DNA of 23,056 bases from a virus (taxonomy: Duplodnaviria > Heunggongvirae > Uroviricota > Caudoviricetes). Positions 21,001 to 23,056 of this stretch are shown here, piece after piece. The position numbers are program-made. Numbering within the stretch: the first letter of the stretch is position 1; every line of letters starts with the position of its first letter. The stretch is from the IMG/VR virus record IMGVR_UViG_2695420651_000007. The stretch is one strand, 5' to 3'.

Positions 21001-23056
21001 TGCGCGTTTGATTTCCACGGATAAGACTCCGCATCCGGATACAGGCCACGCTTCCGGCAATACTCGTAAACCATATCAACCAGCTCGCTGACGTTTGGCA
21101 GTCCGGCGATAACGGATGCTTCTTCCCGGCACCATGCAACAAACTGCCCGGGTGATGGCAGAAATGGTCGATTCTGCCGACGGGCTACGCGCATTCCTGC
21201 GTTAACCTGTTCCATTGTGGTGATCCCGTTTTCCCGGAAAGCCAGAACCCACTGGCGGCGGATTTCGTTCAGTTCGTTCTGGTCACGGTTAGCCAGGCTC
21301 GCCGGGAAAGTTGCCAGTAACTGGCTGAACACACCGTTGATGATCTGCGCTACCTGCTGTACCTGCGGCTTTTCGTCGTACTGTTCCGGCATGTTGTTGG
21401 CGATCCGACGCATCTGCTCACGGTCAAAGTTAACCATCTGTGCGGCGATGTTTTTCATAGATCCACCCCGTAAATCCAGTCTGTGTTTGTCAGGTCGAGT
21501 TTTGGTTTGCTGGCTGTCACGACTGCCTGTTGCTTGTTACGGTTGATTTCGAGCTGGGTCCACTTGTCGCGGAGTTTGGCCGGGCTAAGCACGTTACCGG
21601 ACCAGAAGTTGTCCTGGCATGCCCAGCGGAACAGTACACACATGTCGCGATGGTTACGTCCGTCACGTTCACGCATCAGGCGGATATCGTTAGCCCACCC
21701 AGCAAAATTCGGTTTTCTGGCTGATGGTGCGATAGTCTTCACCATGTCAAACATCCACTCTGCGGCGGTCAGGTCTTCTGCTGTCCCCCACTTGCTGCCG
21801 CTCTGAATTGCAGCATCCGGTTTCACCACAGAAAGGTCGTTTTCTGGCTGGTCAGAGGATTCGCCAGAATTCTCTGACGAATAATCTTTTCTTTTGTAAT
21901 AGTGTCTTTTGTGTCCCCCTGTTTTGAGGGATAGCAATCCCCCAATTTGAGGGATGTTTTATCCCTCGTTTTAGGGGATTTTCCCTCGTTTTGAGGGATA
22001 CACCATTCTGAGATGTTTTTATTTGGTCCAAACATGCCGCCTTGCTGCTTGATAATATTCATTCTGACGAGTTCTAACTTGGCTTCATTGCACCGTTTGA
22101 CGGGTAACTTTGTAATCTCGCTAAGTTGAGAATCGGTGATTCTGTCCATTGGTTTATTCCACCCATAGGTTTTACGCAGAATGGCAAGCAGCACTTTAAA
22201 CTGTCGCTTGGTCAGATCTGCGCCCGAATAAGCCTCAAGCAGCATATTTGATAGTCTGGCGTAACCATCATCGAGATCTGCCACATTACGCTCCTGTCCG
22301 GCAAAGTTACCTCTGCCGAAGTTGAGTATTTTTGCTGTATTTGTCATAATGACTCCTGTTGATAGATCCAGTAATGACCTCAGAATTCCATCTGGATTTG
22401 ATTAGAACGCTCGGTCTTGCACACCGGGCGTTTTTTATTGGTGATTTCATCAAGCGCATACTTAAAAGCTCTGCTAATCGGACTGATGTCTGATGCCATG
22501 CCAAAAGCACACAAGACCGAAGCTATAAACCTCCAGTCTGTTCTGCTTATCTTCGATTCATGACAGCCAATCATCTTTGCCAGACCGCGCTGAGTAAGCG
22601 TTGACAGGTTGATAAGTAAATCTGTTTCTGCGCGATCAACGTCGCGCTGTGATAGTTTGCTGTAATTTGTTTGTTCCATTTCTTAAGATTTCCAATAGTG
22701 AATAGTTAGTTGAAAGGTATGCGTGGAAACGCATATGGCCTTAGTTGGTCAGATATCTTGGGGCTCGCTTTTCAGCGACGTAGGACGAATGTCCGTTGTT
22801 ACAAAGAGCGGCTCCGCTTATTAAGCGGCTTTGTGCTCCGGCGGGAACACGTCATCAAGACTTACTTTTGCGCCTAACTTGTTTAGACACGCAACAAGAG
22901 CACGGCATGTTTTAAGGTCTGGGAAGCGACGACCAGATTCCCAATGTCCGATAGCTCCCTGTGTGCATCCAACTGAACCGCCCCGGGAATCCTGGAGACT
23001 AAACTCCCTGAGAAAGAGGTAAACAGGATGACTAAAAATACACGTTTTTCCCCCGA

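Follow-up and report, generated by a model that had tools for sequence, protein, structure and literature searches.

A 7-nucleotide deletion in the AT-rich repeat of ori-lambda splits initiator gene O in a lambdoid prophage and recurs among wild prophages

The window analysed here, by which we mean the whole stretch of 23,056 nucleotides (nt) given as IMG/VR record IMGVR_UViG_2695420651_000007, is contig CYCH01000054.1 of assembly GCA_001285725.1 and carries a cII-O-P-ren-nin module of lambda type. Our subject is gene O of this module, the lambda-type initiator gene in which the replication origin, ori-lambda, is embedded. In the window O is divided between two reading frames by a deletion of 7 nt within the AT-rich part of that origin. 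The features involved, all on the minus strand, are as follows.

22380..22679, minus: cII-family gene of 99 amino acids, upstream of O (ORF, i.e. open reading frame, list; RefSeq annotation of DEC5A, where the region is identical).
21823..22347, minus: 5' part of O, with a 174-residue product whose DNA-binding domain is whole (ORF list, lambda O comparison, PF04492).
21915..21999, minus: iterons 1-4, bound by O and identical to lambda iterons 1-4 (NC_001416).
21880..21914, minus: AT-rich (unwinding) region of ori-lambda, 35 nt against 42 nt in lambda (39119-39160).
21886..21895, minus: residual tract AAAAGAAAAG, the deletion site (alignments with DEC5B and lambda).
21852..21877, minus: inverted repeat TCAGAGAATTCTGGCGAATCCTCTGA to the right of the AT-rich tract, the palindrome of the origin, which is present.
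21455..21885, minus: 3' part of O in the other frame, lambda O residues 165-299 (ORF 21455..21937, lambda O comparison).
20757..21458, minus: P, the helicase loader, 233 amino acids, intact (ORF list, RefSeq annotation).

The two ORFs into which O falls, 21823..22347 (174 amino acids) and 21455..21937 (160 amino acids), lie in different frames and overlap exactly over 21823-21937. On comparison of the translations, the upstream ORF matches residues 1-162 of lambda O exactly and then continues through 12 out-of-frame codons (the IIRQRILANPLTSQKTTFLW tail) to a TGA stop. From DYSSENS onwards the downstream ORF corresponds to lambda O 165-299 (135 codons), the only departure being one Gly-to-Val substitution. 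DNA alignments, both with lambda and with the Escherichia coli O55:H7 strain DEC5B, contain a single gap of 7 nt as the sole difference in the origin region, the ancestral sequence ACAAAAGAAAAAAGAAAAGATT having become ACAAAAGAAAAGATT in the window. The ancestral tract (lambda 39138-39154, in the AT-rich origin region) reads AC, two successive copies of AAAAGAA, AAG and finally ATT, and it is exactly one AAAAGAA unit that is missing. BLAST places the gap at 21886. The reading frame of O is thereby broken after codon 162 and the continuous frame of 299 codons is gone. An earlier note, made from the sequence before any search, had proposed that a loss of 7 nt in this tract split O into two frames, and had suggested alignment with lambda O and ori as a check; both the ORFs and the alignments with DEC5B and lambda bear the proposal out. 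Its placing of the join at 21876-21886 was off by about 10 nt, the residual repeat occupying 21886-21895 and the 20-mer that it quoted 21878-21897.

The remainder of the origin is well preserved. String matching to the annotation of NC_001416 located the four 18-bp (base-pair) iterons, as exact lambda matches, at 21982-21999, 21962-21979, 21938-21955 and 21915-21932, and the stop codon of O overlaps the start of P as ATGA at 21455-21458; the earlier note's statements that iterons and O-P overlap are intact, and that the lesion shortens the unwinding element, thus both stand. In lambda, ori-lambda (39034-39160) comprises four iterons and some 38 bp of high-AT sequence (PMC3349717), the AT-rich tract being the site of strand separation and of DnaB loading (PMC3349717; PMC7466680). 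As a result of the deletion, iteron 4 stands 7 bp closer to the right-hand palindrome than in the ancestral arrangement. Folded as RNA, this palindrome is predicted to form a hairpin right after the deletion (centroid structure, -12.3 kcal/mol, z = -2.7); a scan of 20000-23056 against Rfam found no family reaching its gathering score. Despite the intact overlap sequence, translational coupling of O to P would not be expected to operate, as ribosomes would terminate at 21823, some 365 nt short of the P start.

The consequences for the protein can be divided along domain lines, the limits of which were taken from Pfam and the literature. The Phage_rep_O family (PF04492) matches residues 22-115 of the truncated product (E=1.4e-36) and covers the same stretch of lambda O. 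No Pfam family was matched by the C-terminal part, and a search of the PDB with the lambda O sequence returned no solved structure. It is the C-terminal part of lambda O that contacts P. We considered whether this part might be translated separately, which is unlikely: no Shine-Dalgarno sequence was seen upstream, and nothing would tether the product to the N-terminal fragment. The 123-residue ORF reported by gene callers starts at a GTG that overlaps the TGA stop (GTGGTGA).

The deletion is present identically in five assemblies, three of them closed chromosomes (DEC5A, FDAARGOS_946 and UGDO01000002.1) and two drafts (CYAH01000051.1 and CYCH01000054.1, the window itself), and in DEC5A and FDAARGOS_946 the gene bears the RefSeq label "replication protein, frameshifted". 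DEC5A, also of E. coli O55:H7, aligns with the window over 101-22975 with 12 differences, both window ends differing in addition; DEC5B shows 31 differences. The counterpart in DEC5A is a lambdoid prophage situated between ybhB and ybhC, whose cargo includes nleB2, nleC, nleH1-1 and nleD. DEC5B has an intact O of 299 amino acids at the same locus. Because DEC5B, USDA5905 and CB9615, the nearest relatives, all retain the full-length tract, the deletion is a derived change that the DEC5A lineage acquired. That it might be an ancestral or functional polymorphism is ruled out by the long form in these relatives and in all isolated phages.

About 1333 E. coli genome records cover the segment, and a 90-nt probe across the junction detected the deletion in nine of them, namely DEC5A, FDAARGOS_946, FDAARGOS_1258 and six O157:H7 strains, in which the prophage contexts differ. 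The exact truncated protein is encoded by contigs from at least 37 blocks of a public collection, in prophages differing in their immunity, nin and structural modules, and IMG/VR as a whole contains the deletion on only four contigs. The commonest metagenomic carrier, L011, gives only mosaic matches, at 97-98%. When haplotypes were compared over flanks of 440 nt on the upstream side of the tract and 400 nt on the downstream side, the 15-16 deletion alleles fell into 8-9 flank haplotypes, eight of which remain distinct if only 150 nt on either side is considered. For five or six of the deletion haplotypes there are wild-type alleles whose flanks are identical, in several cases over 862 nt: one carrier (L014) has the haplotype of lambda, the group of the window has that of DEC5B, and a third (L006) matches seven wild-type contigs. 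From the presence of deletion alleles on distinct haplotypes with such wild-type twins, it follows that the identical deletion arose independently at least about five times. A single origin spread by recombination was rejected as the sole explanation in view of the 8-9 haplotypes, very short gene-conversion patches being formally possible.

The tract was also surveyed in a sample of 120 IMG/VR contigs, drawn from among the matches listed, of which 115 were wild type, two lacked 7 nt, two lacked 1 nt and one lacked 2 nt. Similarly, in about 105 complete O genes among the matches listed, four or five breaks fell within the 16-nt tract compared with about five in the other 880 or so nt, a roughly fifty-fold excess of breaks per nucleotide. 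These figures point to the AT-rich ori-lambda repeat as a putative hotspot for slippage and mutation. The 312-residue O of Stx-phage type, which has six iterons, also occurs with the 7-nt deletion (L007, from O157:H7 F7349; 18 IMG/VR contigs are listed alongside), so that the hotspot is not confined to the four-iteron lambda form.

Other changes were observed in the same tract. Reduction of A6 to A5, which frameshifts O, occurs in several unrelated prophages (L008 from APEC IMT5155, UM146, L030 and L062), and a double loss of 1 nt, again frameshifting O, in L029. The residual tract can itself be read as two copies of AAAAG, and loss of one such 5-nt unit would give an in-frame deletion of 12 nt overall and restore the O frame; this form was not seen among the 120 IMG/VR contigs listed.

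The prophage in the window bears further lesions. An amber TAG at 6958-6960 on the minus strand, where DEC5B has CAG, splits a gene encoding a fusion of ClpP-like prohead protease and major capsid protein into ORFs of 397 and 339 amino acids. The amber codon is common to DEC5A, whose RefSeq entry records an 'internal stop', and is a second independent inactivating lesion of the lineage. At the end of the window beyond cII are two further features.

22821..22975, minus: 3' remnant of a cro-like gene, its first 20 or so codons replaced by an insertion sequence (IS); the DEC5A alignment stops at 22975.
22976..23056, plus: left end of an IS3-family element with terminal repeat TGAACCGCCCC and the start of orfA (MTKNTRFSP); thousands of matches are annotated IS3 family transposase.

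Both ends of the contig (1-100 and 22976-23056) are in fact IS3-family termini in the same orientation, presumably from IS629, the right end of the element adjoining the tape-measure gene at 100/101 and the left end adjoining cro at 22975/22976. The layout could reflect two copies flanking a 22.9-kb segment or, alternatively, a rearrangement. Neither the cro junction nor the tape-measure junction was found in any complete E. coli genome; the cro/IS junction is common to the sister assembly CYAH01000051.1. Since DEC5A has the deletion but an intact cro, the 7-nt deletion preceded the IS event. The prophage thus has several defects, the O lesion being only one cause of its defectiveness, and the earlier note's view of that lesion as a single compact explanation has to give way to a list that includes the truncation of cro by the IS, the capsid amber and the IS at the tape-measure gene. 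Shortened neighbouring genes were also seen in other carriers of the deletion, L011, L013 (9801-9968) and L015 (8663-9022 and 11588-11761), as a 55-residue cII call, a cI consisting only of the peptidase domain and a 57-residue ren, which suggests that these too are decaying prophages.

Two observations concern the prophage more generally. In the ninE/ninF region (19718-19948), eight clustered single-nucleotide polymorphisms separate the window from DEC5A, and at these positions the window agrees with DEC5B, as though recombination had exchanged a short patch between prophages that are otherwise nearly identical. On the opposite (plus) strand a gene for a lipid A deacylase of the LpxR family (17164-18123) lies between the nin region and Q; it looks like a prophage-borne 'moron' of possible benefit to the host.

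Relative to the lambda module (NC_001416 38686-40283), residues 1-162 of O and the iterons are identical, and the palindrome, the O-P overlap and P are intact, whereas the window lacks one 7-nt unit, and with it the 299-codon O frame and the full length of the AT tract. Small deletions in the same region are known among Rambach's r-mutants, which were selected as replication-defective: r96 lacks 15 bp (lambda 39139-39153), while r95 and r99 have lost 12 bp elsewhere in the AT-rich region (PMC6022878). The O proteins of r95, r96 and r99 remain able to complement O amber phages in trans, which places the defect of these mutants in the origin, acting in cis (PMC6022878). Like r96, the deletion in the window is small and spontaneous, affects the same purine-rich repeat of ori-lambda inside O and leaves the iterons intact. 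It differs in that r96 is in frame, leaves O active in trans, costs only the origin and came from laboratory selection, whereas the deletion described here, of 7 nt, is out of frame, truncates O and arose in wild prophages, its effect on the origin being argued from the mutants. With the ori- class as a whole (r93, r95, r96, r98 and r99) it shares a position inside 39034-39160 (39138-39154 in its case) but not the in-frame character.

Among prophages, we take Sp3 and CP-933K of E. coli O157:H7 to occupy the same ybhC-ybhB site and to carry nleB2, nleC, nleH1 and nleD. Sp3 of strain Sakai has been reported to be without cI, cro and functional O and P, and neither circularises nor replicates (PMC2669165). 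The comparison with Sp3 is by description: both are effector-carrying prophages that are, or in the window would be, defective in replication. By contrast with Sp3, the prophage in the window retains its replication module, with a point-like lesion and an IS in cro, and looks like an earlier stage of decay.

The reading that we favour, with a probability of roughly 85%, is that the split gene represents a null allele of the lambda-type initiator O that arose in nature, the embedded origin having probably been inactivated as well. Slipped-strand mispairing during replication would be the most likely cause of the loss of one of the two AAAAGAA units; the earlier note had likewise suspected slippage in a short tandem direct repeat, and the loss of exactly one unit, with the identical deletion on at least five haplotype backgrounds, agrees with this. 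The 174-residue protein would keep its iteron-binding domain but, without the C-terminal 135 residues, would be expected from lambda biology not to recruit P-DnaB. The shortened AT-rich tract would, to judge from the laboratory deletions of 12-15 bp, probably leave the origin inactive in cis as well, and the prophage would then be unable to start theta replication after induction. If the tract is a mutational hotspot, the appearance of the same deletion in unrelated lambdoid prophages would be expected. The host may gain, as a non-replicating prophage cannot kill by replicating in situ. Within the lineage, the deletion would belong to a progressive decay that also includes the capsid amber and, at a later time, insertion of the IS in cro. 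Functional phages with the same sequence and a continuous O, which the earlier note had named as contrary evidence, were not found: the deleted form is in none of 136 isolated-phage records covering the origin segment, and every deletion allele is frame-broken.

Several points weigh against this reading or parts of it. The cis effect is extrapolated to 7 bp from deletions of 12-15 bp, and A_AAG now stands in the right frame for a -1 slip to restore the O frame, so that some full-length protein could be made. As regards the hotspot, the enrichment is based on only about ten events, and the IMG/VR sample required intact 11-mers on either side of the tract. The figure of 0/136 in isolated phages is, moreover, statistically no different from that of about 0.7% in genomes. 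That the gap is an error of sequencing or assembly in a low-complexity tract, the real gene being intact, might be entertained on the grounds that the window is a short-read draft contig and the tract A-rich. The idea is hardly credible given that the five assemblies in agreement, closed chromosomes included, derive from different projects and that the same allele turns up in genomes and metagenomes with no relation to these; in addition, homopolymer error does not typically remove, cleanly, a 7-nt unit composed of A4 and A6 runs. A more serious proposal concerns the cause of recurrence, which might lie in selection rather than mutational bias, hosts that lose O and ori at one stroke escaping replicative killing on spontaneous induction. 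Survivors of induced non-excisable lambda prophages do carry mutations in O, P and ori, r96 in this very tract among them (PMC6022878; PMC3640518), and the deletion is found repeatedly, on no fewer than five haplotypes. Nevertheless, recurrence of this kind is compatible with a hotspot, and both processes can act together. The allele is rare in genome records and in IMG/VR as counted above, and other O frameshifts are about equally common in total. We regard selection as a possible but doubtful driver.

The prospect of full-length protein may be extended into an alternative in which the allele is leaky. A -1 slip on GAA_AAG, with tRNA-Lys moving from AAG to AAA, would yield an O of 297 residues lacking Arg163-Lys164 and hence an attenuated prophage, and a simulated -1 shift indeed gives a continuous 297-residue protein equal to lambda O minus these two residues. 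The likeness is to compensatory, or 'savior indel', sites of -1 frameshifting (PMC5009743), in that the deletion creates a zero-frame GAA_AAG followed by a hairpin, and A_AAG is a minimal -1 shift tetranucleotide in E. coli, as exemplified by G_CGA_AAG in IS1222 (PMC5009743). The hairpin described above, of 10 bp, might assist the slip; it begins 3 nt past the AAG, and an alternative stem of 7 bp begins 7 nt past it, a stimulatory structure being expected at 5-9 nt. Further, removal of 4-5 linker residues (r95, r96) does not stop O from complementing O amber mutants (PMC6022878). In contrast to savior-indel sites, however, the window has no tandem slippery heptamer: the X_XXY_YYZ form is absent and slippage would probably be inefficient. 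Only A_AAG, within A_GAA_AAG, is present, and the P-site tRNA-Glu cannot re-pair. The hairpin is the known palindrome of the origin and is there in the wild type too, and even with O restored the shortened origin would still pose a problem in cis. Nor does the distribution fit well, the allele being missing from the isolated phages and rare and scattered among prophages whose carriers are otherwise decayed (cII or cI truncated in L011, L013 and L015; amber and IS here). Losses of 1 nt also occur in the tract though no -1 shift could rescue them, as plain inactivation would have it. A leaky allele accordingly seems quite unlikely to us. Its elaboration, in which the recurrent deletion is a tolerated 'dimmer', low-level -1 frameshifting sustaining weak replication while the host is largely spared, strikes us as very unlikely.

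Under the favoured reading of a null allele, the kind of event is one already known, prophage pseudogenisation by repeat slippage, and RefSeq had flagged it. The additions made here are modest: a natural, out-of-frame counterpart of r96 in the same tract, and its independent recurrence in wild prophages. The deletion offers a sequence-level explanation of why an effector-carrying prophage cannot replicate on its own, which bears on the mobility of the nleB2/nleC/nleH1/nleD cargo. The tandem repeat in the AT-rich part of ori-lambda is a weak point at which a single slip knocks out the initiator and, probably, the origin with it, and wild prophages have been hit repeatedly in the place that yielded r96 under Rambach's selection in the laboratory. 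Tract length could serve as a simple marker of likely replication competence for lambda-type prophages in genome collections. No new mechanism is revealed, and the case stands as a small, concrete example of the taming of a prophage.

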